A stretch of 32,000 bases of DNA from positions 1,470,001-1,502,000 of the forward strand of contig NC_018655.1 of assembly GCF_000299365.1 (NCBI RefSeq), read 5' to 3'. The notes under the pieces are model-generated. The model made no database searches, had not been told where the DNA came from, and worked only from the letters and a program-made list of their open reading frames with translations. The stretch is from Candidatus Nitrosopumilus koreensis AR1 (GTDB lineage: Archaea > Thermoproteota > Nitrososphaeria > Nitrososphaerales > Nitrosopumilaceae). This document shows, piece after piece, positions 11,739-26,258 of this stretch (its first letter is position 1; each line of letters starts with the position of its first letter). The translations under genes were made by a program, and so were the position numbers.

Positions 11739-13004
11739 CTAAATTATAATTATTTTCCTTTCAACAAGATTTTCAATTATATTTAGAAATTGTTCATCAG
11801 AAATTTTTTCTTCATACCACCAACTTGCAGGAGTTTGTACCCATGCAGGGATTCTCCATTGTGATTCAGAAACTATCTCACGTGTTGGAACAGATACAAT
11901 CTGTTTCTTAAGGAGGAAATCAATTCCTTCAAGAAATTCTGAATCAGAAATTTGTTCAGTTGCCCACCAATCTGCATTTTGTTTTATCCATGCAGGAATT
12001 GTAGGTAGTTCTGGAGGCAATCCTTCATCAAAACCAGAAATTTTCAAAATACCTTGAGATTGCGGTCCAACTGTAAATGCAACATGCCAGAACCCCATCT
12101 CATCTATGCTTTGAATAAATTCTATAGGCTCATCATCAATAGTAATAGAAAATTTTTCATTTCCTGAAATTGGAGCAAATTCAAAATTAGCATATGTATC
12201 TAATGGATAACTATTGTAGCCTTTGATAGTCATTGTTGTACCAGACTCATCAAATTTTGCAGCTGAATACCATGCTCCTGAGTCATATCTAAAATCAAAA
12301 TCACCATCATTTTTCTTTACAGTTACAGGAATTACAGTAGTATCAACTGGCGCAAAGCAAGAGTAGAAACGTACTGGTTCAGAGACAGATGGATCTGGAT
12401 AGATAGTAAAATCTAGAATCTGTCCTGGTTCAATTTTTTCAATTGGCTCAATATTGTGGGCAACATCTAAGATAAACTTCTCATAACCATGAACAATAGC
12501 ATACACTTTTGGATTGTATACTGTATGATTTCCAACATTCTCAATTTTTCCAGTAACATGTCCATCATCATGAGTGATCAAAGTTTTGTCATAGATAATT
12601 TGAATTGGAATACGATCTTTTTCAGTTTTAGTGTAACTTAGTTCTGCATCTAACAATTCAGGATTTTCACCACGTATATCGGGGAATTTTATTTTAAAAG
12701 GAATGTCAGTCATTGCAGGGATTGGCACATGAACAAGTTCTTTAGTAATTTTTGTTGCATCATCAATAACAGAAATTGTGATGGTTGGAATCAACGCAAA
12801 ATCATTTTGGTTTTTGACATTTCCAACAACAGTAAAAATGCCTTGATAATCATAGTAACCAGTGTATTCATTTGTTGGAATAAAGACATCAGCAAATGCT
12901 ATCTGCGGAACAAGAAATATGGATAAAATGATTCCAAATAGAAGAGTTTTGTATGATATCTTAGAATGAATTGATGATATCTTCAAATCACGCGTTGTTT
13001 TCAT
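11739..13004 (-). CDS. Secreted protein of unknown function with two C-terminal Trp-rich repeats
   Basis: Signal peptide ...LVPQIAFA|DVF. There are two internal beta-sandwich-like segments (FTVVGNVKNQNDF / VTGKIENVGNHTVYN). The C-terminal tandem repeat IPAW(I/V)...WW...(I)SD..F is shared with the next two genes. The tracked TTG start at 13025 is replaced by the ATG at 13004. Confidence 0.6.
   Translation of the reverse strand: MKTTRDLKISSIHSKISYKTLLFGIILSIFLVPQIAFADVFIPTNEYTGYYDYQGIFTVVGNVKNQNDFALIPTITISVIDDATKITKELVHVPIPAMTDIPFKIKFPDIRGENPELLDAELSYTKTEKDRIPIQIIYDKTLITHDDGHVTGKIENVGNHTVYNPKVYAIVHGYEKFILDVAHNIEPIEKIEPGQILDFTIYPDPSVSEPVRFYSCFAPVDTTVIPVTVKKNDGDFDFRYDSGAWYSAAKFDESGTTMTIKGYNSYPLDTYANFEFAPISGNEKFSITIDDEPIEFIQSIDEMGFWHVAFTVGPQSQGILKISGFDEGLPPELPTIPAWIKQNADWWATEQISDSEFLEGIDFLLKKQIVSVPTREIVSESQWRIPAWVQTPASWWYEEKISDEQFLNIIENLVERKIIII
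11742..11999 (-). repeat. Coding tandem repeat (2 copies, about 49-aa period): IPAWIKQNADWWATEQISDSEFLEGIDFLLKKQIV / IPAWVQTPASWWYEEKISDEQFLNIIENLVERKII
   Basis: Direct comparison of the translated C-terminus. Confidence 0.85.
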
Positions 13005-13088
13005 AGTGCTTTTAGGCCTAAACAAAGTAGTGTAATTTTCTTAATTATTCATTTAAACCGACTGGTTCGATTATCAAATCAGTGTAGA

Positions 13089-14738
13089 TTAAACACGAAT
13101 TATTCCTTTTTGAATCAAAAATTCCAATCCTTGTACGAATGTTTGATTGTCTATATGTCCTGCAGCCCACCATGCAGCATTGTTTCTAATCCAAGATGGT
13201 ATCTCTTGAGACTCTGAAGTTTCCTGTTGAGTTGGAGGAAGTATAATAATTTGATTTTTGATTAGATATTCTATTCCTTGTACGAATGTACTATCATCAA
13301 TTTGTTCTTCAGACCACCACAATGCATTGTTTCTAATCCAATCAGGAATTATAATTTCTTTTTGTGGTGTAACTCTATCAATAACAATCGGGATAGTTGT
13401 TTGTGCAAGCTCATTATTATTAAGATTATTAAAATTAAGATGCGCAATTCCTGTTACATCTTGTGGAATAAAAAATTCAACTACATTGTGTTCTTCTCTT
13501 GAATCAGTACTAATTCCATTTTGTTCAAAAATTATTCTGTTATTTTGTGTAATAGAAAATTCATAATTGGTTGAAACAGGTTTGTTTTTTAAGAAGACAT
13601 CAGTTACATCAAAAATTATTTTTGCATTTGAATTAGATTTTAGATATTCTGGTTCCCAAGATACAAGAATTCTGAATTGCCCATTTTCAGTAACTGAGCT
13701 CAAATGAGGGTAATCCTTATCAGGTTTAATTACAAAATTCATCCCATTTGCATTTGAGCCATTTTCAAGAATGTTGAGTAATTCTTTTTGATAAATAATA
13801 AAATGGACTATACGGCCGTCAGAAAAAAAATCATCTATTGTGATTACATCTTCAGAAAGTTGCACTCCATTAATGAACATAGTAAATCCAGATACAAGCA
13901 AGTCACCAAATGTTTTTGGAATAACTAGTTCTTCATGTACAACAGATGTTTGATTGATGTTTGTATAACTCCAGTCAAAAGGCATTGAATATCTAATCTC
14001 TTTTGAATCAGAATCATATTCAAAGTCAGAAATCTCATCATAATAAGTAACGACATGAATATTCTGATCTCCAAAGTTAGGATCAACAAAATCATGTCTA
14101 GAGGTCTGAGCAATAGAAATTCCTGCGTTAAAAACTAGTGGTTCTTCAAGTGTATTGGAATAACTGTCAACAGTAAGTACACTAATATCAAATTTGTATA
14201 ATCCTCCTTCGCTGAGCTTTGGACCCTTTACATGAATCATCCTACTATCCAATCCTAATAACGAACCAAAGATACTGCTTTCACTTTCTTCCTCTACAAT
14301 AATAGAATCTGTTTCTTCTGAAACAAAGTTAAAGACTAAAAATCCATTATCAGCTTTGAATTCTTGTTCAAAAAGAAACTGTTCTCCCTTTTCAGATGTT
14401 ATATGAAAAATAACGTCACGTAAAGTAATTTTAGAATCAAAATCAATTAACGAAATCGATATTTGTTGTCCATCAATTGCTTCAGGATCACCTTTTGATG
14501 AAGAAACTTCCAGAGCCACTTGCTTTCCGTTCAATTCGACTGGAGGAAATGTTTCGCTTCCTACCCCATGACCATGAACGTCAGTAAATGAAACTAAAAA
14601 CAAAGAAGAGATTAGAAGTAATACAAATAACGATGGAGATTTCAATCTATGTCCACTTGTTTGGATCTTTTTTACGAATTTCTTTTCCATCAATTGTAAC
14701 TGAATCTTTTTCTTCAAAGATAGTATGCCATTTGCCAT
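13089..14738 (-). CDS. Secreted HG(L/V)G-N-terminus family protein, paralogue 1, with two C-terminal Trp-rich repeats
   Basis: Homologous to 14886-16589 and 24873-26240 through shared blocks GGLYKF, YYDEISDFEYD, MPFDW, VVHEELVIPKTF, INGVQL and IVHFIIY. The signal peptide ends FTDVHG|HGVG. The start is ambiguous: ATG at 14738 or 14690, or TTG at 14645, which gives a paralogue-like 25-aa signal peptide. Confidence 0.7.
   Translation of the reverse strand: MANGILSLKKKIQLQLMEKKFVKKIQTSGHRLKSPSLFVLLLISSLFLVSFTDVHGHGVGSETFPPVELNGKQVALEVSSSKGDPEAIDGQQISISLIDFDSKITLRDVIFHITSEKGEQFLFEQEFKADNGFLVFNFVSEETDSIIVEEESESSIFGSLLGLDSRMIHVKGPKLSEGGLYKFDISVLTVDSYSNTLEEPLVFNAGISIAQTSRHDFVDPNFGDQNIHVVTYYDEISDFEYDSDSKEIRYSMPFDWSYTNINQTSVVHEELVIPKTFGDLLVSGFTMFINGVQLSEDVITIDDFFSDGRIVHFIIYQKELLNILENGSNANGMNFVIKPDKDYPHLSSVTENGQFRILVSWEPEYLKSNSNAKIIFDVTDVFLKNKPVSTNYEFSITQNNRIIFEQNGISTDSREEHNVVEFFIPQDVTGIAHLNFNNLNNNELAQTTIPIVIDRVTPQKEIIIPDWIRNNALWWSEEQIDDSTFVQGIEYLIKNQIIILPPTQQETSESQEIPSWIRNNAAWWAAGHIDNQTFVQGLEFLIQKGIIRV
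13092..13349 (-). repeat. Coding tandem repeat (2 copies): IPDWIRNNALWWSEEQIDDSTFVQGIEYLIKNQII / IPSWIRNNAAWWAAGHIDNQTFVQGLEFLIQKGII
   Basis: Direct comparison of the translated C-terminus. Confidence 0.85.
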
Positions 14739-14853
14739 TGCTTGGGAAAATTTTATTCATCTCTTCAACTTTATCGTTAGTTGGGGGTTTGTTCATCAAT
14801 GCACCCCACTTCATGTTAGGAATTTTTGGCATGATATCATTGATGTCTTTCAT
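14647..14853 (-). CDS. Candidate small protein (68 aa), unknown function
   Basis: ATG-initiated ORF filling the gap between two paralogue genes. A TATA-like TTTAAATA lies about 22-29 nt upstream of its ATG. Its TAG stop is followed 1 nt later by an in-frame TTG for the downstream paralogue. There is no recognisable domain, and it competes with the long-start model of 13089-14738. Confidence 0.4.
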   Translation of the reverse strand: MKDINDIMPKIPNMKWGALMNKPPTNDKVEEMNKIFPSNGKWHTIFEEKDSVTIDGKEIRKKDPNKWT

Positions 14854-14874
14854 ATACTATCACTTGACTGAATT

Positions 14875-14882
14875 TATTTAAA
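14875..14882 (-). promoter_or_regulatory. TATA-box-like element (TTTAAATA on the minus strand)
   Basis: It sits about 26 nt upstream of the ATG at 14853, which is the spacing expected for a leaderless archaeal transcript. This is sequence-only evidence in AT-rich DNA. Confidence 0.3.
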
Positions 14883-14885
14883 AAC

Positions 14886-16589
14886 TTATGATTGAATTCT
14901 CATGATTCCTTCTTTAATCAAGAATTGAATTCCTTGAATGAAAGAGCTATCATCAATTGCACCTTCTGCCCACCAACCTGCATTGTTTTTAATCCATGCT
15001 GGGATTTCATTAGAACCAGAACCTTGGCCTTGTGATGTTGGTGGAATCTTTAGAATATCTTCTTTAATCAAATATTGAATGCCCTGAACAAAGGAATTGT
15101 CATCTATTTGTCCATCAGCCCACCAACCTGCATTGTTTTTAATCCATGCAGGTATTGCAGCAGGAGGTTGTACATCAGGAGTTTTTCCTACACTAGGACC
15201 AATCTCAATTATTCCTGAACCAATTCCTGCATAAGTTTCATCATATGCTAATCCAGTACCTAAAGCTCTTACATCAATTCTGTAAGTTCCTTGAGATGGA
15301 ATGTAGATTTTTTGAACATCAATTCCTTCAGAAGCTATAATTCCAGGCATATCAGGATTATCTCCCAAGAATGTCTCTAAGATCTTATCATTTTCATCAA
15401 TAAAAGAAACAACATATCTCATATCACGAATGAGATCTCTGTTTTCATCAAAGAATGCTATTTCAAAAGGTACATCATCTCCGGCACCGTAATTTCCATC
15501 CCATGAAATATTCACAGTTGTTGGAACCTGTTCATAGTTTGTGGTGTCAACAAGATAGAATTCAGTAGAACTCTTTGAAACTTCATCAAGTGGCACTAGT
15601 TTCAAGTTCATTTCTGTGTTATCATAGTGACTTGGTCCCAATGTTTCATTGATTTTCTGCAATTCAGCTTTGGTAATTAAAAAGTGAACAATATTGGTAT
15701 CATCATATGAATAAGGATCATTTAGTAATGCACGTTGGTCAATTTCTACACCATTGACATATCCCTTGAACTGTTTACCTTCAGCGTAAGGTGCAAAGGT
15801 TTTTGGAACTCTAACTTCTTCATGAACTACTTGAACTAAATTAACATAATCAGGATTCCAATCAAATGGCATATGAAATGAAATTGAGTTATCTGATTGA
15901 TCAAACTTGAAATTATCTACATGATCATAGTATGTTTTTATAACAACTGGCACTTCAGCGTTTGCGGTTTGTATCAGAAAGTTTTGATCTTGTGCAACAC
16001 TAACATAAGTTTCATAGCTTAGAAGATTTGCTAATACAGTTCTAGGACTAGTTGCACCTTCAATATCAACTCTAATCTTATACAATCCACCATTTACAAA
16101 AATAGGACCAGTCATTGATGGTCGTGCACAAATATCTAAGTTATCATCAGTACATTCTGCGCCTTGAACAAATAATGCACCGGGAGCACTAACATGTTCA
16201 GAACCACCATAAACAGTACATTCTTCAGGTTTAGGTTCATCACAGTTAGGATTTGGCTTAATTTTTACATCCAGTCTTCCATCCAAATCATAGAAAAGAT
16301 TTCTAGCTAAAAGTTCGCCACTTTGCCATACTTCTATTCTATATGTTACTTTATCGAGATTTGTGTCAGTTAAGGTATCAAAGAATCGTACTTGCATGTT
16401 AGCTGAATCAACTTCACCTACTGTAATATCTGATGGACTCAATTGTGTACGTACTGTTACTTCCATATCACCAAAACTCAATGCTGGAGCTTGATCACCT
16501 CCTAATCCATGTCCAAACACATCAGGAACTAATGTCGGTATTGTGAAAATCCCAACAATTACAATTAGTAATGCAAACTTATGATACAA
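14886..16589 (-). CDS. Secreted HG(L/V)G-N-terminus family protein, paralogue 2, with two C-terminal Trp-rich repeats
   Basis: 567 aa. TTG start, with no in-frame ATG before the signal peptide. The signal peptide ends PDVFG|HGLG. Family blocks: [47 protein letters not shown]. Confidence 0.75.
14889..15155 (-). repeat. Coding tandem repeat (2 copies, exact 150-nt period): [35 protein letters not shown] / [35 protein letters not shown]
   Basis: It contains a perfect 32-nt DNA repeat (14968-14999 = 15118-15149, gcccaccaacctgcattgtttttaatccatgc). Confidence 0.95.
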
Positions 16590-16701: not shown

Positions 16702-17526
16702 ATGAAAGTTATATTTGCGTTATTACTAATACCATTTTTGTTAACAGTTCCAGCTTTTGCTGAAACCCAAACATTACCAACTGAAAAGAATACTTTGGAT
16801 GTAAAATTAACATATGATGAAATTGAACCAGGTGTTCAAACAAAGATTGGTATAGATTTTATCAATCCACAAACTCAAAAAATTCAAGAACATATTGATT
16901 ATACGGTAGCTGTATCAAAAGATGGTGAAAATGTATTTGGACCAATTCCACTTACACACACATCTGTGGGATCTGTAAAAATTCCAATAGAGTTTAATCT
17001 TGGAGAAGGAATATACTCGATGGACTTTGAGATTGAAGGTATTTTATTTCAACCAATTCCAAAAGAATCGGTATCTTTTGACATTCTAGTAGGTGAAGCC
17101 AATGCACAACCAATTACACCAATAGAGAATGAAAAACTAGATGGTGAAAATGGAGGATGTCTTATTGCAACAGCAACATTTGGCTCTGAGATGGCACCAC
17201 AAGTACAACAACTAAGAGAACTTAGAGACAATACAATTCTAAAAACAAATTCAGGAATGGCATTCATGACAGTTTTTAATCAGTTCTATTATTCATTCTC
17301 ACCTGCTGTTGCAGACTTTGAAAGAGAGCAACCATTTTTCAAAGAAGTTATGAAAGTAACACTTACTCCAATGTTATCATCATTATCATTACTAAATCAT
17401 GTAGATATTGATTCAGAACAAGAAATGCTGGGATACGGTATCTCTGTAGTACTACTGAATCTTGGAATGTATATTGGAATTCCGGCATTTGGAATTCTAA
17501 GATTGTACCAGTTTAGAAAAAACTAG
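16702..17526 (+). CDS. Secreted protein: beta-sandwich module plus a GGCLIATATFGSE...LRELRDN C-terminal module with a hydrophobic tail
   Basis: 274 aa with signal peptide ...TVPAFA|ETQ. The N-terminal module resembles the C-terminal module of the paralogue family. The Cys-containing box CLIATATFGSEMAPQVQQLRELRDNTIL is followed by FNQFYYSFSPAVADF and a terminal TM segment. Confidence 0.55.
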   Translation: MKVIFALLLIPFLLTVPAFAETQTLPTEKNTLDVKLTYDEIEPGVQTKIGIDFINPQTQKIQEHIDYTVAVSKDGENVFGPIPLTHTSVGSVKIPIEFNLGEGIYSMDFEIEGILFQPIPKESVSFDILVGEANAQPITPIENEKLDGENGGCLIATATFGSEMAPQVQQLRELRDNTILKTNSGMAFMTVFNQFYYSFSPAVADFEREQPFFKEVMKVTLTPMLSSLSLLNHVDIDSEQEMLGYGISVVLLNLGMYIGIPAFGILRLYQFRKN

Positions 17527-17589
17527 TGTGTATCCATTTTCTGGAAATTCTAGTGAGGTTTTTATGTATCTGAGCAAGTAGTTTGATTA

Positions 17590-18453
17590 ATGAAGACTAT
17601 AGCAATTTGCTCTTTCTTCGTACTATTTGCTATGGTAGCTGGATTAGTTGCAACAACACCAGCTGCTTTTGCAGATCATTCAGAAGTCACAATCTCACCA
17701 GCATCAGGTTCTGGTGCACCAGGTTGTGAAGAAACCGCAGATGGATGTTACATTCCAAATACTGCAACAGTTGATGTTGGCGGTGTTGTTATCATGTCAA
17801 ACACTGACACTGCAGCACACACATTCACATCAGGAACTCCAGATGATGGGCCAGATGGTGTATTTGACACCAGTCTATTAATGGCTGGAAATTCATTTGA
17901 GTGGAGTCCAACAGTTGCAGGTGAACAGCCATATTTCTGTATGGTACATCCTTGGATGCAAGGCTTGATCATAGTACAAGAAGCAGGAGCTGAAGAAGCT
18001 GATGATCATGGTGATGAGATGATGATGCCAACAGGTGCCGCTGCAGCAACAGGAATGTTGTCTGACGGTACAAAAGTTTCTGTCTGGACTACAACACCTA
18101 CTAAAGGTGAGATGATGGAAATTTCTGTTCAATTTGAAGGTGCAGAACATGTCAATCACGATATGAAAGTCACACAAAATGGTAATACAGTACTAGATGA
18201 TAAGGGCGCACATCATCATGATGGAAAAGGAGTACATATGACAAAAGCTCTTGGTTCATCTGATCCAGTAAACATCACAATTACCTTCCAAGGTTATGGT
18301 GTTGATGATCCTAAAACAGGACCAATTGGTGAAAAAGTAGTATTCTCAAACGTTGTTCCAGAATTTGGTACAATTGCAATGATGATACTAGCTGTTGCAA
18401 TTATAAGCATTGTTGCAGTTACTGCAAAATCTAGAGTCATTCCAAGATTTTAG
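17590..18453 (+). CDS. Blue (type 1) copper protein (cupredoxin) with Met/His-rich linker, second His-rich domain and PEFG-CTERM tail
   Basis: Signal peptide ...PAAFA|DHSE. Type 1 Cu ligand pattern: AAHTFTSG ... YFCMVHPWMQG (C-x2-H-x2-M, amicyanin-like loop). Linker: EEADDHGDEMMMP. Second domain contains HVNHDMKV and GAHHHDGKGVHM. C-terminus: PEFGTIAMMILAVAIISIVAVTAKSR. Confidence 0.85.
   Translation: MKTIAICSFFVLFAMVAGLVATTPAAFADHSEVTISPASGSGAPGCEETADGCYIPNTATVDVGGVVIMSNTDTAAHTFTSGTPDDGPDGVFDTSLLMAGNSFEWSPTVAGEQPYFCMVHPWMQGLIIVQEAGAEEADDHGDEMMMPTGAAAATGMLSDGTKVSVWTTTPTKGEMMEISVQFEGAEHVNHDMKVTQNGNTVLDDKGAHHHDGKGVHMTKALGSSDPVNITITFQGYGVDDPKTGPIGEKVVFSNVVPEFGTIAMMILAVAIISIVAVTAKSRVIPRF
18358..18450 (+). 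other. PEFG-CTERM-type sorting/anchor segment of the cupredoxin
   Basis: PEFG motif, hydrophobic helix and a basic cluster (KSR) at the extreme C-terminus. Confidence 0.7.
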
Positions 18454-18466
18454 GAATCCTCTTTTT

Positions 18467-19105
18467 CTATTTTCTTTTTATTAAAGCAATTATCGCCAAG
18501 ATTATAGCTGCTCCGGCAATTGATAATCCAAATATTGCAAAGTCATAAGCTGTTCCACCATCAGATGTTACTTCAGTTTCACCTGACTTTAGTTTAGAAA
18601 CATCTTGTTGTAATGATGAAATTGCATTCTTTAGAGCAGCAACATCAGCAGCACCTTCACTGCTAGTAGGTGGGAAATCTAACACTGCGGTAGGCTCTAC
18701 ATCCTCAATAGGGATTTTAATATCAATAGGAGTTCCACGAATTTCTCCTTTTAGTTCCACCATGTATGTTCCTGTTTTAGTTGGAATTATAGGTGAAAAA
18801 TAATATCCAGGTTTAGGATCAGAATTTATATCAATTTTCTTTGTTGCACCACCAAACATCACAGTTGCATCAACATCTTTGAAAGCACTTGTGATTCCTG
18901 TAAATGTACCTTCTTTTTCTCCACGTTCAATCACTTTTAGAATCAGATCATTTCTAATGCCTACAACTGGAGGCTCGATCCCCCATCCTGCTTCAATTTC
19001 GTATGGTTCGACATGAACAGTTGTATGTGCAAATGATGGTGCAATCATTCCAATTGAAAACAATAAACCAATAATACCAAAAACTAGTATTTTCATTGTT
19101 ATCAT
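18467..19105 (-). CDS. Membrane-anchored secreted protein, YcnI/DUF1775-like (tentative), predicted N-terminal His
   Basis: Signal peptide ...IAPSFA|HTTVHVEPYEIEAGW, comparable to the H-x-x-V-x-V-x-P start of mature YcnI-type proteins. It has a beta-rich body and a C-terminal TM helix plus KRK. The tracked TTG start at 19153 is replaced by the ATG at 19105, with another ATG at 19096. It is divergent from the CopC-CopD gene. Confidence 0.45.
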   Translation of the reverse strand: MITMKILVFGIIGLLFSIGMIAPSFAHTTVHVEPYEIEAGWGIEPPVVGIRNDLILKVIERGEKEGTFTGITSAFKDVDATVMFGGATKKIDINSDPKPGYYFSPIIPTKTGTYMVELKGEIRGTPIDIKIPIEDVEPTAVLDFPPTSSEGAADVAALKNAISSLQQDVSKLKSGETEVTSDGGTAYDFAIFGLSIAGAAIILAIIALIKRK

Positions 19106-19198
19106 TTCATAATTACACGTTATTATCTTTACGTGAATTGGCACAAATATCAAATTTGTGAAAACTGTTTAAATTATCAAAGATGATCCTAAGAGTAA

Positions 19199-21982
19199 AT
19201 GCAAAAATTTCTCATCACGTTATTGGTAATATCATTTATTTCAATTCCATTTGCAACAGCACACCCATTTACTGAAGAGACAATTCCAAGTTTGACGTCT
19301 AATGCCCCATCTGGAACAACTGAAGTGATTGTATATTTTTCAGAACCAGTTGATATTAACTTTAGTGAACTCAAAGTATTTGATACAAATGGAGATCAAA
19401 TAGACAATAAAGATACAGATTACTATGAAGGGGAATTATCTCTAATAATTACAACACCACCATTAGAAGATGGAGTTTACACTGTATCAACCAAAGTTCT
19501 CTCTAAAGTAGATGGCCATCTAGTTCCAGATGCATTCTTGTTTGCAGTAGGAGATGCTGTTATTGATCCCTCTTTACATAATGTAGAACGACCATCAGAG
19601 ACAGTATTTCTGCCTGAAGCTGGTGCCAGATTACCAGGATTGGTAGGTCAAACGATTGTTTTAGGTGCAGTGATTTCATCACTCATAATTTGGGGTACAC
19701 AAAATAAACAATCGATAAAAGATGAACTAGAAAAGATTCAATCTTTTCATCACGGAAAATTTATGTCAATTACAGGAATTGGACTTGTTTTAGTTTTCAT
19801 TTCAGATATTTTGATGATTGCAGTTCAAACAGTTAGATTAGAAGCATCGCCGATTGATGCAATCCAAACTGATTTTGGCAATATTTGGTTAATCAGAATG
19901 ACCATAACAATAGTATTACTAGGCATATGGTTTGGGTTAGACAGAAAAAAAGTACTATCAAGGAAAAATCAAATTGCAATGTTAGTAGTATCGCTTGTAT
20001 TAATTGCCACAACAAGTCTAATTGGACATGGTGCAGCTAGTGGAGAAACACCTGCATTAGTATTAGATTACATTCACAATTTGGTTGCAGCAGTTTGGAT
20101 AGGTGGAATTTTCTATTTTGTTTTCACATTGCTTCCAACATTTTCACAATTAAAAGAATCATCTAGAGAAAAGATGAGCCTATTAATGATTCCAAGATTC
20201 TCAATTGCATTTATCATTGCAGTAGGAATCGTTATAATTACAGGACCAACATTGATGTGGTTCCTAGAAAGTGATATTGGATTAATTACAGAATCAATTT
20301 ACGGTCAATTAATTATTCTAAAAATTGCCATTGCAGTAGTAATAGTTGCATTTGGAGGATTTTTCCAGTTCAAAGTACAAAAAAATGCAGAAAGAAATTT
20401 TTCATCAGGAAAAATTTTTGTACATAAAAAACTAAAGAGATCACTCAAAGTTGATGCCGTATTGGGAATAATACTTCTTGGAGTGGTAGCATTACTAACT
20501 AACGGAACATTACCTGCAGGAGAAATCCAAAAAGTTGATGCTCAAGAAATTATCTATGGTTTCAAAACGATAGAATTTACAGAGAACGCAAAATTTGATA
20601 TCGATATTTCGCCATTTTCAAGCGGACCAAACACAATCCTAATCAAGGTTAGTGACTTTGAAGGAAATCCACTCTATGATTCAGATCAACTCAAAGTCAA
20701 AATATCAAATCCATCAAAGAATATCGCACCAATTGAAGTGCCAATGGAGATAATCAAACAAGAAGAGAACAAACCAATAGAATTCCAAGGAGAATTAACA
20801 TTTGGATTTTCAGGAGAATGGCTAGTAGAAGTTGAAGCACAAAGAACCGATAATGCAAGCGAGTCAAAGCTTTTGAATTTACTAGTAAAGCCAAGACTGA
20901 CAGACATACAAACTCAGATTATCGAATATGAACTACCAGAGGACGCAAAACCGCTCTTTCCATTGTATGATGGGCATGATTCGATTTGGGTAAGTGATGC
21001 ATCAGCGCCACGAGTATGGCAATTTTCACTGGATTCACAAGAGTTTACACCATATTCATTTGATGGTGTAGTTACAACATTCCTTACGCAGGACAAACAA
21101 GATAGAATTTGGTTTGTGGATCCACCAAGGAATCAGATTGGATTCATAGATCTTCAAACAAAACAGATCACAACAAAATCTATTCCAAAACTTGATCCTA
21201 CAATCTCAGACAATACACCATTGTTCATAAAATCAGACTTTGATGGAAACATATGGATTACAATAATCAACAAAGACAGAATTGTAAAATACATACCAGG
21301 AAATGACGAATTTGAAGAAATTGTTTTGTCAGGAAAAGATAACTTACCGTTTGCATTAGCTCTTGATAATGATGGAAAAGTATGGTTTTCAGCAACAGGT
21401 ACAGGAAAAATAGGATACGTTGATCCAAAAGACAATAAATTGATTGAATTTACAAAAGAGCCTCCACTACAAGGACCAGAGGCATTGCTTTTTGATGATG
21501 ATGGTAATCTCTGGATTGCAGAACATACAGGCTTGGCAATCACCAAATTCAATCCAATTTTAGAAACATTTGAGAGAGTATCAGTCCCAAATGAAGAGGC
21601 ACTACCATTTGGAATGACATTTGACAGATACGGAAATGTTTGGTTTGCACAGCACACGATAGATAGCATAGGTGCATATGATCCAGATAACAATAATTTG
21701 ATTGAGGTTCCTATTCCATCAGAAACATCATTTGTGCAGTTTATGACATCAGATGGAGACAATAACGTATGGTTTGTTGAACAACAGACAAACAAAATTG
21801 GAACAGTAAAGATTACTGAGATTCCCGGTATTACATCGCAAGTTCAATCATCTGCCGAATTTGAATTAAAGTATACAGAACTTGCATCACCACTAATTGC
21901 GTTAGGAATCATTGCAACGTCTTTGTTTTATGTAAAAAGTATTCAGGATAAAAGAAGATTAAATTCACTAATCAGGTCTTAG
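19199..21982 (+). CDS. CopC-CopD fusion protein extended by a YtkA/FixH-like beta-sandwich, a six- to seven-bladed beta-propeller and a terminal TM helix
   Basis: 927 aa. Signal peptide ...IPFATA|HPFTEE. CopC module (about nt 19262-19573) with His1 and VDGH. Polytopic CopD module (about 19616-20520, including IGHGAASGE). Beta-sandwich at about 20546-20900. Repeated blades at about 20920-21820 (DRIWFVD, DGNIWIT, DGKVWFS, DGNLWIAE, YGNVWFAQ, DNNVWFVE), of the Vgb/SMP-30 type. Terminal TM helix plus KRR. Confidence 0.8.
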   Translation: MQKFLITLLVISFISIPFATAHPFTEETIPSLTSNAPSGTTEVIVYFSEPVDINFSELKVFDTNGDQIDNKDTDYYEGELSLIITTPPLEDGVYTVSTKVLSKVDGHLVPDAFLFAVGDAVIDPSLHNVERPSETVFLPEAGARLPGLVGQTIVLGAVISSLIIWGTQNKQSIKDELEKIQSFHHGKFMSITGIGLVLVFISDILMIAVQTVRLEASPIDAIQTDFGNIWLIRMTITIVLLGIWFGLDRKKVLSRKNQIAMLVVSLVLIATTSLIGHGAASGETPALVLDYIHNLVAAVWIGGIFYFVFTLLPTFSQLKESSREKMSLLMIPRFSIAFIIAVGIVIITGPTLMWFLESDIGLITESIYGQLIILKIAIAVVIVAFGGFFQFKVQKNAERNFSSGKIFVHKKLKRSLKVDAVLGIILLGVVALLTNGTLPAGEIQKVDAQEIIYGFKTIEFTENAKFDIDISPFSSGPNTILIKVSDFEGNPLYDSDQLKVKISNPSKNIAPIEVPMEIIKQEENKPIEFQGELTFGFSGEWLVEVEAQRTDNASESKLLNLLVKPRLTDIQTQIIEYELPEDAKPLFPLYDGHDSIWVSDASAPRVWQFSLDSQEFTPYSFDGVVTTFLTQDKQDRIWFVDPPRNQIGFIDLQTKQITTKSIPKLDPTISDNTPLFIKSDFDGNIWITIINKDRIVKYIPGNDEFEEIVLSGKDNLPFALALDNDGKVWFSATGTGKIGYVDPKDNKLIEFTKEPPLQGPEALLFDDDGNLWIAEHTGLAITKFNPILETFERVSVPNEEALPFGMTFDRYGNVWFAQHTIDSIGAYDPDNNNLIEVPIPSETSFVQFMTSDGDNNVWFVEQQTNKIGTVKITEIPGITSQVQSSAEFELKYTELASPLIALGIIATSLFYVKSIQDKRRLNSLIRS

Positions 21983-22790
21983 AAAGCAATCCAGATGATT
22001 TAATTCCCATAGTACCAGCTAGCAATCCAATTGCAATCAAGACAATTGTTCCTGCAGGAGTAATATCAAAGATATAAGAAACCAAAATTCCCGTTACAAC
22101 TGAAAAAATTGAAAAACTCATAGAAATAATTGCAGTTTGTTTGAAACCTTTACCATACATTATTGCTGAAACATTCGGAATAACAAACAATGCAGAAATC
22201 AACAGTACCCCAACAAGCTGAATCGAGGTGACAACTGTAAGGCCTGCCATAAACACTATTAGATAATTTATCTTCTCTACAGGGATTCCACTGACTTTGG
22301 CTTGCTCTTCATTAAATGTAGAATAAAGAATCTGTCTAAACAAGACCAATATCACAATCAGAATTGCGCCAGTAAGTGCAAGTATCAAAACAGTATCATC
22401 AACACTGACTAGTAGAATGCTACCAAAGAGGAAACTAAAGATATCAATTGTAAACCCTCCTGAAAACCCAATAATTACAAGCCCAACTGCTATGCCGGAG
22501 GACAAAAGTACTGCAATGGATGCATCTCCAGATATGTTGAATCTGTCTTTTACTCTAGTAATGATCAATGCACTAATTATTGATACACCATAAGCAGTCC
22601 ATAATGGATAAACTCCTACTAAAAGACCCAAAGCTATTCCACCAAAAGACGAATGTGCTATTGCATCACCAAACAATGAATACCGTCTAAGAACCAAAAA
22701 CAATCCAACAACTGAACAAAGAATTGCAATGGCAATCCCAGAGATTAATGCTCTGTGCATAAAACTGTAAGTTAGAATTTCAAAAGACAT
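21972..22790 (-). CDS. Metal ABC transporter permease (ABC-3/ZnuB-TroCD family)
   Basis: 272 aa, polytopic, in an operon with the ATPase and the cluster-A-I-type binding protein. The 3' end overlaps the convergent CopCD gene by 11 nt. Confidence 0.8.
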   Translation of the reverse strand: MSFEILTYSFMHRALISGIAIAILCSVVGLFLVLRRYSLFGDAIAHSSFGGIALGLLVGVYPLWTAYGVSIISALIITRVKDRFNISGDASIAVLLSSGIAVGLVIIGFSGGFTIDIFSFLFGSILLVSVDDTVLILALTGAILIVILVLFRQILYSTFNEEQAKVSGIPVEKINYLIVFMAGLTVVTSIQLVGVLLISALFVIPNVSAIMYGKGFKQTAIISMSFSIFSVVTGILVSYIFDITPAGTIVLIAIGLLAGTMGIKSSGLLSKT

Positions 22791-22792
22791 GA

Positions 22793-23515
22793 CTAATGAT
22801 GATGCATATGCTCCTGCATCGATGCTTCAGAGTATTGTTTGACAAGATCATCATCAGAAAAGAATTTTTCAGATTCTCCATGAAAGAACAAAGTTCTATT
22901 TAGACAAGCAACATGATTTGCTAATTTGTTTACAGCATCCAAGTCATGAGAAGACCAGATAATCGTAATCTTTTGTTTAGAGTTTAGTTCACGTAAAATA
23001 CTGTAGAACAGTTCTATGCTTTGCTGATCAATTCCAGTTACTGGTTCATCTAAAATCAAAAGTTTAGGATTATTCACCAAGGCTTTTGCAATAAAAACTC
23101 GTTGTAGTTGTCCTCCAGATAGTTCTCCTATTCTTCTATTTTGTAGTTCATGTATCCATAATTGCTGTAAAATTTCATTGATCTTGTTTTCATCAGATTC
23201 TTTTCGTAATCCCATCCTTACAACATCACCTACAGTTGCAGGAAAATTTTTTTCAAAAATTGGTTTTTGTGGAACATATCCAATTTCTTTAAGATAATTT
23301 CTTGATTGTCTAATGTCTTCTCCAAAAAACTTGATTTGGCCTTTGTATGTTGTATTGAGTCCAAGCATGCAATCAAAGAGAGTTGACTTTCCAGCACCAT
23401 TAGGCCCAATTATGCCTAGAAAATCACCCTGATTAACCACAAAACTCACATCATCAAGAGCTTTTACATCAGGATATCGAACAGTGAGATTGTTAATTTC
23501 AACTGCCTTCAACAT
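22793..23515 (-). CDS. Metal ABC transporter ATP-binding protein (ZnuC/TroB-like) with C-terminal His-rich tail
   Basis: Walker A GPNGAGKST, signature LSGGQLQR, Walker B LLILDEP. The C-terminus ends MQEHMHHH. Confidence 0.85.
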   Translation of the reverse strand: MLKAVEINNLTVRYPDVKALDDVSFVVNQGDFLGIIGPNGAGKSTLFDCMLGLNTTYKGQIKFFGEDIRQSRNYLKEIGYVPQKPIFEKNFPATVGDVVRMGLRKESDENKINEILQQLWIHELQNRRIGELSGGQLQRVFIAKALVNNPKLLILDEPVTGIDQQSIELFYSILRELNSKQKITIIWSSHDLDAVNKLANHVACLNRTLFFHGESEKFFSDDDLVKQYSEASMQEHMHHH

Positions 23516-24417
23516 AGTGCCTCCTTTAGGTTCTCAAGATTTTGGTTCATTTTTTCAATGTAGGTTCCATCAGATGCAATCTCTAATGAGGATAAAACCA
23601 AAACTTTGCCGTCAATTTCATGCGCAATGGTTTGAGAAGTTCTAGCATCAACTGTTTCTTTGCTAAAAATTATTTTGATATTAAGTTCTTTTGCAGTTGT
23701 AATTACACTCTCTAGCTTTTTTGCAGTGGCTTCTCCATGTGAATCAGTCGAAGAGATGATTGTGTGTTGATGTAAGCCATACTCATCAGCAAAATATGAA
23801 AAGGCATCATGAAATGCAATAAAATCAGAATTACAATTTGACAAATCATTTCGAATTTGTGAGTCCAATAAGTTGAGTTCTTCAATGTATGATTCAGCAT
23901 TGGATTGATAAAATTGCACGTTTTGAGGATCATGTTTTGAAAATGCATCTGCAATGTTTTGAACTTGAATTTTTGCATATACAGGATTTAACCATATATG
24001 CGGATCTCCTGATTCATGATCATATTCATCTTCTTGAGATTTTTTTGCTAAAATTCCATCGCTTGTATCAATTATAGTTCCCTGATAGTTATTATCATCA
24101 AGTTTATCGACCCAATTTTCAAAACCAATTCCATTAATAATTATAAGATCAGATGCTTGCATTTTTTGCACATCTTTAATTGTTGGTTCCCAATCATGAG
24201 GTTCAACTCCAACTGGAACAAGTAATGTGACATCAACTTTGTCTTGTCCTACATTTTGTGCAAATTCATGCAACGGATTAAATGATGATATGACTTGCAG
24301 TTTTGAATTTTCTGGAGAAGTAGATTCGGTGTTTGGATTTGTTCCATAAACTGCAAGTGAGCTTAATGGAATTACTACAGATATTACAATTATTGCAAGT
24401 TTGGTTTGTATATTCAC
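23509..24417 (-). CDS. Metal ABC transporter substrate-binding protein (ZnuA/TroA family)
   Basis: 302 aa with a GTG start and an N-terminal anchor/signal. Ligand contexts: VEPHDWEPT, GDPHIWLNP, AFHDAFSYF, KETVDAR. This is a three-His plus Asp pattern, of the Zn/TroA type rather than the Mn type with Glu. There is a short acidic/His loop, EDEYDHESGDPH. Confidence 0.8.
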   Translation of the reverse strand: MNIQTKLAIIVISVVIPLSSLAVYGTNPNTESTSPENSKLQVISSFNPLHEFAQNVGQDKVDVTLLVPVGVEPHDWEPTIKDVQKMQASDLIIINGIGFENWVDKLDDNNYQGTIIDTSDGILAKKSQEDEYDHESGDPHIWLNPVYAKIQVQNIADAFSKHDPQNVQFYQSNAESYIEELNLLDSQIRNDLSNCNSDFIAFHDAFSYFADEYGLHQHTIISSTDSHGEATAKKLESVITTAKELNIKIIFSKETVDARTSQTIAHEIDGKVLVLSSLEIASDGTYIEKMNQNLENLKEALC

Positions 24418-24458
24418 GCAACCGTTAATTAAAATTTTATTAATAAATCTATAAAATC

Positions 24459-24471
24459 TTAATAATATTAA
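24459..24471. promoter_or_regulatory. Perfect 6-1-6 inverted repeat TTAATA-A-TATTAA in the divergent transporter/NikR-like intergenic region (candidate operator)
   Basis: Read directly from the sequence. The region is extremely AT-rich, so a chance palindrome is plausible. Confidence 0.25.
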
Positions 24472-24508
24472 TTGCTAAACTTATAAGATAATTAATAACA
24501 TTAGGCAT

Positions 24509-24892
24509 ATGCCAATAGTATCAATCTCACTAAATGATGAGATTCTATCTGAGTTAGACAAATTGCAATCAAGCATGGGTTTCTCAGGAAGATCTGAGGC
24601 AATCAGGGCAGGAATCAGGGCATTTGTTTCAGAAGAAAAACAAAAGTCAGATTTATCAGGTAATATTCATGCAATTCTTTTGGTGGTACACAATGATGAG
24701 TTTGATCATGTTGTGTCAGGGATAACTCATAACTTTGAAGATCTAATAACTACACATCTTCACAGTAAAATTGACAAAGAAAAATGCATGGAACTTTTTG
24801 TAATTGATGGAGATGCAGAAAAGGTTTCTACAATGACAAAAGACTTTCAGATAAACAAAAACATGGATACTGTTAGACTTGTTGCAATCTAA
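24509..24892 (+). CDS. nikR: NikR-family metal-responsive ribbon-helix-helix regulator
   Basis: 127 aa. N-terminal RHH (VSISLNDEILSELDKL...GRSEAIRAGIRAFV). C-terminal metal-binding-domain pattern VVHNDEFDH ... THLHSKIDKEKCMELF (H-x-H...C), similar to NikR high-affinity site residues. Confidence 0.75.
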   Translation: MPIVSISLNDEILSELDKLQSSMGFSGRSEAIRAGIRAFVSEEKQKSDLSGNIHAILLVVHNDEFDHVVSGITHNFEDLITTHLHSKIDKEKCMELFVIDGDAEKVSTMTKDFQINKNMDTVRLVAI

Positions 24893-26240
24893 ATGAATTT
24901 TTTCTGGTAATAAAAATTACAGATGCAATAGAAATTATCAATACAAATAATGCAATTGTGCCAAATTCAGGTGCAACTACCATACCAAATTCAGTTTCTT
25001 GTCCAGTATTTCGTATATTTTCAAATTTAATTATTGTAGGGCCTGTTTGATCTTCTGCAAATGTATATTTTTCAAATTCTCCACCAACTTGGGCTACACC
25101 AGACACGCGATGTATCTCCTCTCCATTTTGAATGATTACAAATGTATAATCAGAATTTCTCAATGGATCATTTGTTCTTCCGTCTCGGATAGTAAAAATA
25201 AAATTTGTTTCAACACCAGGTTCAAGATCCGCAGGATCCCATGACAGATTTACTTTAAAGTCCTCACTTTTTGTGTATGCCTCTAATGGAAAAGCAGTTT
25301 TATCGCTAGTCAATAAAGTAAATACAATATTATCAGGCAATTGTTCATCTGATTTTTTCATTTCATTTTTTATATATCGGATGTGATCCTGCAGCAAAAC
25401 AAAATGCACTATTCTTTCATGATCTTCTGTATAATCATCAATTGATACTGAAGATTTGAATAATTCAATTCCATTTACATACCCAGAATAGCTAGGGGAC
25501 AAAAGTTCAACAAAATCTTTTGGGAAATGAACTTCTACATGAATTACTGAAATGTGAGACATCTTACTTTCTTTCCAGTCAAATGGCATCTCAAATCTTA
25601 CTTGTTTTGCACTAGGATCATACTGGAAATTGTCAATTTTATCAAAATATGATTTCATTCTAAATTGAACGTCATTGCCCTCAAGATCTTTTTCCATAAA
25701 AGACGATGTGCTAACTACACTCAAATCTGCATTGTAGATGCCAGAATCCTCTATAATGTTGGTAGGCTCATCAATTGTTCTAACTTCAATCTCAAAATTA
25801 TACAGACCACCTGAAGAAAATAATGGTCCAGTTATCTCAATTGGATCTGACACAGTTCCATGCCAAGCCCCAAGCAGAGAGTCTTGCTCACCATGTATTG
25901 TTATCTCACCTTCATTTGATGGATTCACCTTGATTGACAAAACTCCATTTTCTGCAAAAAAGTAATTTCTAAAAATCATTTCATTGCTATGAAACAATCC
26001 AATGAGAAATGTCACGTTTTTTGCAGGTTCGTCTGTTTCATTATCAGTTGCAGTTATTGTGATTTGTTCTTGACCACCTTCAAATGTCAATGGCATCTCT
26101 ACTGAAATTGAAATGTCTTTTCCAGCAACATTTACTGAAGATATGGTATCAATTCCCAACCCATGTCCGTAAACACTGCTAACAGGAAATAGCAAGCATG
26201 CAGATAATGCCAATATTGAAAATTTTGTAAATGACATCAT
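24873..26240 (-). CDS. Secreted HG(L/V)G-N-terminus family protein, paralogue 3, with PEFG-CTERM tail instead of Trp-rich repeats
   Basis: The signal peptide ends VSSVYG|HGLG. Family blocks: GGLYNF, YFDKIDNFQYD, MPFDW, VIHVEVHFPKDF, VNGIEL, IVHFVLL. C-terminus: PEFGTIALFVLIISIASVIFITRKN. The tracked TTG at 26243 is followed immediately by two ATGs, so I use 26240. Confidence 0.75.
   Translation of the reverse strand: MMSFTKFSILALSACLLFPVSSVYGHGLGIDTISSVNVAGKDISISVEMPLTFEGGQEQITITATDNETDEPAKNVTFLIGLFHSNEMIFRNYFFAENGVLSIKVNPSNEGEITIHGEQDSLLGAWHGTVSDPIEITGPLFSSGGLYNFEIEVRTIDEPTNIIEDSGIYNADLSVVSTSSFMEKDLEGNDVQFRMKSYFDKIDNFQYDPSAKQVRFEMPFDWKESKMSHISVIHVEVHFPKDFVELLSPSYSGYVNGIELFKSSVSIDDYTEDHERIVHFVLLQDHIRYIKNEMKKSDEQLPDNIVFTLLTSDKTAFPLEAYTKSEDFKVNLSWDPADLEPGVETNFIFTIRDGRTNDPLRNSDYTFVIIQNGEEIHRVSGVAQVGGEFEKYTFAEDQTGPTIIKFENIRNTGQETEFGMVVAPEFGTIALFVLIISIASVIFITRKNSFRLQQV
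24876..24971 (-). other. PEFG-CTERM-type sorting/anchor segment of paralogue 3
   Basis: PEFG motif, hydrophobic helix and a basic cluster (TRKN). Confidence 0.7.
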
Positions 26241-26258
26241 CAAATTTTTATCCCAGGG

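Follow-up and report, generated by a model that had tools for sequence, protein, structure and literature searches.

Ammonia-oxidising archaea belong to the most abundant microbes of ocean and soil, and their energy metabolism runs almost entirely on copper enzymes that they keep outside the membrane. Among the described copper sites of exported proteins, the histidine brace is a point of reference for the genes reported here. In lytic polysaccharide monooxygenases (LPMOs), CopC, PmoB and YcnI, Cu(II) is held by the alpha-amine and the imidazole of a first-residue histidine (His1) together with a second histidine. A strict brace needs the imidazole of His1, a residue that belongs to the rigid core of the known proteins; AA10 LPMOs and PmoB/AmoB also begin with His-Gly. 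We analysed a 32,000-nucleotide stretch of the genome of Candidatus Nitrosopumilus koreensis AR1 (NC_018655.1, positions 1,470,001 to 1,502,000 of the forward strand; hereafter the window), in which three minus-strand genes (copies 1, 2 and 3) encode homologous secreted proteins that are predicted to start with His-Gly once processed. A preliminary description of this DNA had proposed a copper-binding cell-surface family built on a histidine brace. The secreted, anchored family is real and lies in a metal island, while the histidine brace as stated was not supported. We tentatively favour an anchored metal-binding protein that would use an H-x-E...H motif of its middle domain, with copper as the likeliest ion and residue 1 as a possible extra ligand.

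The three genes are true paralogues, with similarity far above chance. Pairwise BLASTP alignments over ~370-570 residues show 28-30% identity (29%, E 2e-59; 28%, E 2e-37; 29%, E 9e-56), and every shared block quoted for them in the preliminary description is present in the copies (GP.F..GGLY, Y(Y/F)D, MPFDW, V(V/I)H.E, (V/I)NG and IVHF). A family profile was built from the cores of the three copies, and its matches were counted as clusters at 50% identity; it retrieved 735 cluster representatives at E<=1e-3 and 203 at E<=1e-30. Searches with single proteins returned 1922 and 1128 clusters at 90% identity. Most matches are unnamed metagenome proteins, and those with an organism name all come from Nitrosopumilus, Nitrosarchaeum, Nitrosomarinus, Nitrososphaera or 'Thaumarchaeota'; among named members, the family is confined to ammonia-oxidising archaea. 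Public names of members are 'hypothetical protein', 'PEFG-CTERM sorting domain-containing protein', 'peptidase' and 'secreted periplasmic Zn-dependent protease'; copy 2, whose orthologue in N. maritimus is Nmar_1648, is labelled 'peptidase' or 'hypothetical'. No Pfam or NCBIfam model fits the family core, the whole proteins or isolated domains 1 and 2, and only PEFG-CTERM scored. PDB sequence searches with a 3-sequence and a 121-sequence profile gave no significant match; the alignment with the best of them, CppA (E 0.035), leaves the conserved His and Glu of the family unaligned. In the full-text literature that we searched, we found no paper naming or describing the family, and no mention of Nmar_1647 to Nmar_1650, Nmar_1652 or Nmar_1658. 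The claim that the family is uncharacterised is thus borne out: this is a large unannotated family of secreted, surface-anchored archaeal proteins.

The case for a metal site begins with the middle domain. Conservation was scored over 150 family representatives, numbered here as in copy 3. At an overall identity of 20-30%, the near-invariant residues are G28, F95, G100, G146-L-Y148, Y199, D201, M219-P-F-x-W223, H235, E237, N257, D269 and H280. The polar ones, residue 1 excepted, all fall in the middle domain and are not next to the N-terminus in sequence. Since H235 and E237 stand two residues apart on one strand, they face the same side; H280 follows on a later strand. With Asp and Asn nearby, this H-x-E...H arrangement looks as a mononuclear metal site would be expected to look. 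No conserved His occurs in domain 1 of the three window copies. One subfamily (50 Asp-start and four His-start proteins, the start residues being discussed below) carries a co-varying cluster there, H76, H96, H98, H149 and D160, within the motif HVTY...FHxHxG...GGLYHF followed by Asp. The cluster is absent from all three window copies; His-cluster and Asp-start members outside the window include P0328, P0285 and L081:6356-8176. It offers a second hint that the scaffold may be used for holding metal. The subfamily came to light through a mean-field coevolution analysis of 529 sequences intended to place residue 1, which was itself rejected for its implausible contacts and for too small an effective number of sequences (143).

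Signal peptides and anchors place the family outside the membrane. Just as first read, VHG, VFG and VYG close the signal peptides of the three copies, and HGVG, HGLG and HGLG come next. Across four sequence sets, the site has A/V/S/I at -3, Y/F/H at -2, G/A/S at -1, H or D at +1 and G at +2; it sits at a fixed distance from a conserved residue, fits the signal peptidase I rule, and has a hydrophobic core 7-11 residues upstream in 463 of 468 motif-carrying sequences. In all 238 motif-carrying close orthologues, [A/V]-[Y/F]-[G/A] directly precedes His-Gly: His occupies +1 in 118/118 such orthologues of copy 3 (118 of 120 clusters) and in 120/120 of copy 2, with Gly always next. The most probable cut by signal peptidase I falls after [A/V]-[Y/F]-[G/A], giving a mature start His-Gly-(Leu/Val)-Gly-x-(Glu/Asp). 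We infer the position of the cut itself from sequence, and to that extent the proposed cleavage before His, and the conservation of that His among close orthologues, agree with what was found.

At its C-terminus copy 3 scores 40.4 bits against the PEFG-CTERM model TIGR04296 (cut-off 25; residues 423-451), and the same anchor is found on the cupredoxin encoded in the adjoining island. Copies 1 and 2 have no PEFG-CTERM. They end in two Trp-rich repeats with the consensus IPxWI(K/R)NNAxWW...(I/L)I, or in its longer form IPxWIKNNAxWWxxGxIxDxxFxxGIxYLI, which no Pfam or NCBIfam model fits. Because it replaces PEFG-CTERM at the C-terminus of many members, the repeat is probably an unannotated envelope-binding and presumably non-covalent anchor. 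Family members at large use one of three anchors: PEFG, the Trp-rich repeats or a CFI-box-CTERM. These anchors point to tethering outside the membrane and, with the signal peptides, support the cell-surface location that had been claimed.

The residue exposed by the predicted cut is not histidine throughout. In the residue-1 column of the 150 representatives, H occurs 102 times, D 26, Q 2, N 2, E 1 and Y 1, the other 19 sequences (the three window copies included) being gapped; Asp thus accounts for 26 of the 128 representative clusters having His or Asp at this position. Starting from the Asp-start group, a search brought up 116 proteins, all of which read A-Y-A before the cut and D-G-L-T-Q-E-N-L-P-P after it. 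These come from Nitrososphaera and some Nitrosopumilaceae and keep all other invariant residues; H235, E237, H280, D269, N257 and D201 are common to both clades. Contig L085 holds an Asp-start member and a His-start orthologue of copy 3 in the same locus. His and Asp are alternative predicted first residues, each conserved, of paralogous subfamilies. Such an alternation fits a metal ligand or an acid/base group, not a strict histidine brace. Odd members showed no clear pattern of co-loss of residue 1 and H235/H280.

AlphaFold2 models of copy 3 were made with a 121-sequence alignment. The precursor model has a predicted local distance difference test score (pLDDT) of 91.1, with residues 22-28, including His27 and Gly28, below 50. 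The mature chain (residues 27-423) reaches pLDDT 95.2 and a predicted template-modelling score (pTM) of 0.88; only two residues lie at pLDDT 50-70 and residue 3 onwards averages ~91, block averages from which the two are identified as His1 and Gly2. The model consists of three beta-sandwich domains: the first (residues 27-177) holds an insertion and the GGLY motif, the second (178-300) closes with a helix, and the third spans 305-423. Foldseek searches of the PDB with the precursor and mature models returned macroglobulin-type domain arrays only, namely complement C3/C5, alpha-2-macroglobulins and an adhesin stalk; the best matches have E 5e-7 to 1e-4, a template-modelling (TM) score of ~0.2 and ~10% identity. 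No LPMO, CopC or cupredoxin appears in the top 50 PDB matches.

The genes lie around a conserved metal-homeostasis island, which upholds the claimed placement among copper genes. Synteny was counted over 42 Nitrosopumilaceae loci of >=15 kb; the best 80 loci of a genome scan were all Nitrosopumilaceae. The tandem of copies 1 and 2 is present in all 42, the CFI-box gene in 41, a gene for a 228-aa protein in 39, CopCD in 38 and the cupredoxin in 37. Three distant relatives (L081, L085 and L086), with CopCD ~50% identical, have the island in the same order, with an Asp-start member and a SpaA-like protein at its rhomboid-proximal end. Both copper genes named beforehand were confirmed. The cupredoxin is PEFG-CTERM anchored and carries FCMVHPWM, and its orthologues score as PF00127; the CopC-CopD fusion is recognised by Pfam (CopC E 6e-10, CopD E 6e-14) and its CopC part has the mature start H-P-F-T-E-E. 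The three copies, CopC and the 228-aa protein make up the five of eight secreted proteins of the locus with a predicted His start. One metagenome protein (P0378, 466 aa) joins domains 1 and 2 to a plastocyanin/azurin domain that replaces domain 3 (PF00127, 34 bits; YFCRLHPFMLG), and no other of the 522 family sequences has such a fusion. The copper context, though strong, is not found everywhere: Nitrososphaera-like contigs have no CopCD within 10 kb of the Asp-start gene, whose neighbours there are either an Fe/Mn superoxide dismutase and the SpaA-like gene or unrelated genes. In N. viennensis, a copC/D cluster induced by copper limitation holds several 'exported proteins of unknown function' (PMC7785015), one of which, NVIE_014340, is up-regulated 2.7-fold; they may or may not belong to this family.

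Taken together, the invariant H-x-E...H, the synteny with CopCD, cupredoxin, ZnuABC and NikR genes, the plastocyanin fusion and the His-cluster subfamily lead us to favour an anchored pseudo-periplasmic metal-binding protein, at a probability of about 40%. Copper is the best guess because of the neighbouring genes. The protein would be exported by a Sec-type signal peptide whose removal exposes His-Gly, or Asp-Gly in the sister clade. Its three beta-sandwich domains would be held in the pseudo-periplasm, between membrane and S-layer, by PEFG-CTERM in copy 3 or by the Trp-rich repeats in copies 1 and 2. A divalent ion would sit at the middle-domain H-x-E...H, close to the invariant Asp and Asn, and the free N-terminal His or Asp, on a short and less ordered arm, could be an extra or hand-over ligand. 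The ion would be captured or buffered at the cell surface for the CopC-CopD importer and the cupredoxins. Metal binding, the choice of metal and the hand-over are all things that we infer. Several points weigh against this proposal. The modelled placement of His1-Gly2 is uncertain, the fold matches are generic macroglobulin/immunoglobulin (MG/Ig)-type arrays at TM ~0.2, and the Nitrososphaera-like contigs lack the copper neighbourhood. Each genome holds several paralogues with interchangeable anchors, as is typical of binding or adhesive proteins generally, and the aromatic-rich invariant set (Y148, Y199, Y200, F221 and W223), with its acids, would also fit a glycan-binding pocket or a structural core.

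Much of this would suit a metal-independent envelope protein, that is, tandem Ig-like domains serving as scaffold, spacer or adhesin, whose middle domain may have a pocket for sugars of the S-layer or matrix. The best fold matches are the beta-sandwich arrays of complement C3, alpha-2-macroglobulin and a 'large adhesion protein' repeat, the anchors are exchanged among PEFG, CFI-box and Trp-rich repeats, paralogues are several per genome, Asp, Glu and Asn accompany the invariant aromatics, and the Asp-start clade keeps a SpaA-like neighbour. Two invariant His and a Glu in an H-x-E...H pattern are nevertheless unusual in a plain scaffold, which would also leave unexplained the tight conservation of the first mature residue, the persistent placement around CopCD, cupredoxin and Znu, the plastocyanin fusion and the His cluster of one subfamily. 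We hold this explanation to be unlikely, though it deserves serious weight.

We do not think that the family is a canonical histidine brace, and a site of that kind is improbable here. It would draw on the His predicted at residue 1 of all close orthologues and on the copper genes alongside; further, the family start A.G/HGlg.E.lPP (the slash marks the cut) aligns with ATA/HPFTEETIPS of the window CopC, although hhalign gives these 24 columns, which cover only the signal peptide and the first 10 residues, a probability of only 13.7%. Neither the full-length proteins nor their single domains matched CopC (PF04234) in Pfam at E<=10. A conserved Asp at residue 1 in 116/116 proteins of a large clade, which coexist with His-start copies, does not suit a brace; nor do the missing second conserved His in domain 1 of the window copies, the pLDDT of 50-70 at His1-Gly2 and the absence of LPMOs, CopC or cupredoxins from the top 50 Foldseek matches.

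A pseudo-periplasmic enzyme with a mononuclear H-x-E...H centre, either a redox enzyme paired with plastocyanin-like proteins or a hydrolase, is doubtful too, and we consider it improbable. The spacing H235-x-E237-x42-H280 is reminiscent of a 2-His-1-carboxylate triad, a cupredoxin is conserved among the gene neighbours, a plastocyanin domain is joined to one member, and named members are restricted to ammonia oxidisers. That fusion is a single case, however; the middle domain has only ~120 residues, no enzyme fold or family was matched in Pfam, NCBIfam, PDB profiles or Foldseek, and the many diverged paralogues argue against one core enzyme. More speculative, and in our view a long shot, is a new metalloprotein class of ammonia-oxidising archaea, in which residue 1 (His or Asp) and H-x-E...H would form a joint copper centre, for copper delivery to ammonia monooxygenase and CopCD, or for an unassigned redox step of archaeal ammonia oxidation with plastocyanins as electron partners. 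The secreted zinc peptidase of the public names, for which the only other support is the local string HEE in copies 1 and 2, can practically be dismissed, as HExxH is absent (family consensus V-H-x-E-x-x-x-P-K; copy 3 VIHVEVHFPK), no Pfam or NCBIfam peptidase model fits, no protease is among the fold matches and the CppA hint aligns neither His nor Glu; the label 'peptidase' is unsupported.

These results matter in three respects. The family brackets the only recognisable copper-import genes, and its members are thus concrete candidates for the missing steps by which scarce copper is captured and enzymes are loaded. A misleading public label is corrected. The shortcut by which an N-terminal histidine means a copper brace fails across the family.

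Table 1 Features of the three paralogues and of the metal island, in window coordinates
Feature	Position	Strand	Description	Basis
Copy 1	13089-14738	minus	549 aa; signal peptide, three beta-sandwich domains, two C-terminal Trp-rich repeats	open reading frame (ORF), homology
Copy 1 signal peptide	14571-14738	minus	ends V-H-G	ORF and site statistics
Copy 1 predicted mature residue 1	14568-14570	minus	His57 of precursor; start HGVGSETFPP	
Copy 1 signature stretch	13800-14045	minus	YYD232-234, MPFDW252-256, VVHEE266-270, INGV289-292, IVHF310-313	
Copy 1 Trp-rich repeats	13098-13349	minus	two 35-aa repeats (IPxWIRNNAxWW...)	
Copy 2 (NKOR_08915)	14886-16589	minus	567 aa	100% match
Copy 2 signal peptide	16512-16589	minus	ends V-F-G	ORF and site statistics
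Copy 2 predicted mature residue 1	16509-16511	minus	His27	
Copy 2 signature stretch	15681-15932	minus	YYD220-222, MPFDW240-244, VVHEE254-258, VNGV278-281, IVHF300-303	
Copy 2 Trp-rich repeats	14901-15155	minus	two 35-aa repeats	
Copy 3 (NKOR_08960)	24873-26243	minus	456 aa; same three domains and PEFG-CTERM anchor	100% match
Copy 3 signal peptide	26166-26243	minus	ends V-Y-G	helix at residues 2-17 in model
Copy 3 predicted mature residue 1	26163-26165	minus	His27; start HGLGIDTISS	
Copy 3 middle domain (~residues 179-300)	25344-25709	minus	Y199-F-D201, M219-P-F-D-W223, H235-x-E237, N257-G, D269, H280, helix 285-297	conservation and secondary structure
Copy 3 PEFG-CTERM sorting/anchor signal	24876-24971	minus		TIGR04296
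Metal island between copies 2 and 3	16702-24892		CFI-box-CTERM protein, cupredoxin, 228-aa protein, CopC-CopD-propeller fusion, ZnuB/C/A-like transporter, NikR-like regulator	

Some details of the genes themselves remain. Copy 3 starts with TTG at 26243, the 26240 given previously being the next ATG, and its 3' end overlaps the convergent gene for the NikR-like regulator (24509-24892) by 20 bases (24873-24892). The longest open reading frame of copy 1 begins 36 residues ahead of the hydrophobic core, and a signal peptide of more usual form would result from an internal Met17; Met17 may be the true start and the annotated one set too far upstream. Copy 2 alone has four Cys in a domain 1 insertion (15900-16250, residues 116-154), which probably form two disulfides; Cys is absent from mature copies 1 and 3. 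A pair of Trp-rich repeats also ends the unrelated, likewise secreted product of an adjacent 428-aa open reading frame at 11739-13025 (repeats at 11748-11999), and the repeat always comes as two tandem copies; hhalign of this 428-aa neighbour against the family profile found nothing.

Other observations concern the island. The CopC-CopD protein (19199-21982, plus strand, 927 aa) continues with a weak YtkA-like stretch and a C-terminal Vgb-lyase-like beta-propeller (E 3e-46); the propeller is unusual for a copper importer and is kept in L085 and L086. Behind its signal peptide, the 228-aa protein (18467-19153, minus strand) is predicted to begin with H-T-T-V-H-V-E; a domain of ~150 aa follows, and a membrane helix closes the C-terminus. 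Its gene always adjoins that of CopC-CopD, in 39/42 loci and also in L081, L085 and L086. In layout and position the protein is reminiscent of YcnI, which Bacillus encodes beside YcnJ; for the 'YcnI-like' identity given to it earlier, Pfam offered no match, nor did PDB sequence searches with the protein itself or with a 4-sequence profile, and hhalign against the family profile also found nothing. The ZnuC-like ATPase (22793-23515) has the His-rich tail EHMHHH. The CFI-box-CTERM protein (16702-17526, plus strand) is encoded between copy 2 and the cupredoxin, and hhalign aligns its N-terminal domain weakly with family domain 3 (E 0.006, probability 6.5%); other genomes have a CFI-box tail joined directly to an Asp-start family member (L081:6356-8176). 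The divergently oriented SpaA-like neighbour of Asp-start members, of ~380 aa and with a weak SpaA-type (Ig-like) Pfam match, lies at L081:5134-6264, L082:8752-9909, L085:8785-9912 and L086:7322-8452. Its Nitrosopumilaceae-like and Nitrososphaera-like versions are 46% identical, and it has no homologue in the window.

Comparison with known systems provides some insight into where this family stands. The PEFG-CTERM proteins of Thaumarchaeota (TIGR04296) share their sorting signal with copy 3 and with the cupredoxin, and this tag is common to unrelated proteins and silent on function. Nitrosopumilus also has PEFG-CTERM proteins that are induced by H2O2; the ortholog-group names under which these are reported do not link them to this family. 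With the 2-His-1-carboxylate sites of cupins and oxygenases, the family would share the invariant H235-x-E237 and an H280 that follows 42 residues on, a likeness in sequence pattern that offers a lead; such enzymes are mostly cytoplasmic Fe(II) proteins. From the macroglobulin and Ig-like arrays (C3/C5, bacterial alpha-2-macroglobulin and adhesin stalks) it borrows, so to speak, the string of beta-sandwiches on a surface protein. The likeness is one of domain type only, as the thioester (CGEQ) is missing from copies 1 and 3 and, with no Cys in their mature chains, would not be possible there. The histidine-brace proteins (CopC, YcnI, the CuB site of PmoB/AmoB, LPMOs and X325/Bim1) are one-fourth to one-fifth the size of these three-domain proteins. 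Neither the start with Asp of a whole clade nor the His1 that is not rigid in the model has a parallel among them, and no relation was detected in sequence, or in fold among the top 50 Foldseek matches. They are, as the family is predicted to be, exported beta-sandwich proteins in which the cut exposes His1 and which act at the cell surface. The window CopC start, H-P-F-T-E-E-T-I-P, resembles H-G-V-G-S-E-T-F-P-P of copy 1 in pattern; and CopC and YcnI are encoded beside CopD-type importers, just as the genes of this family sit near CopC-CopD.

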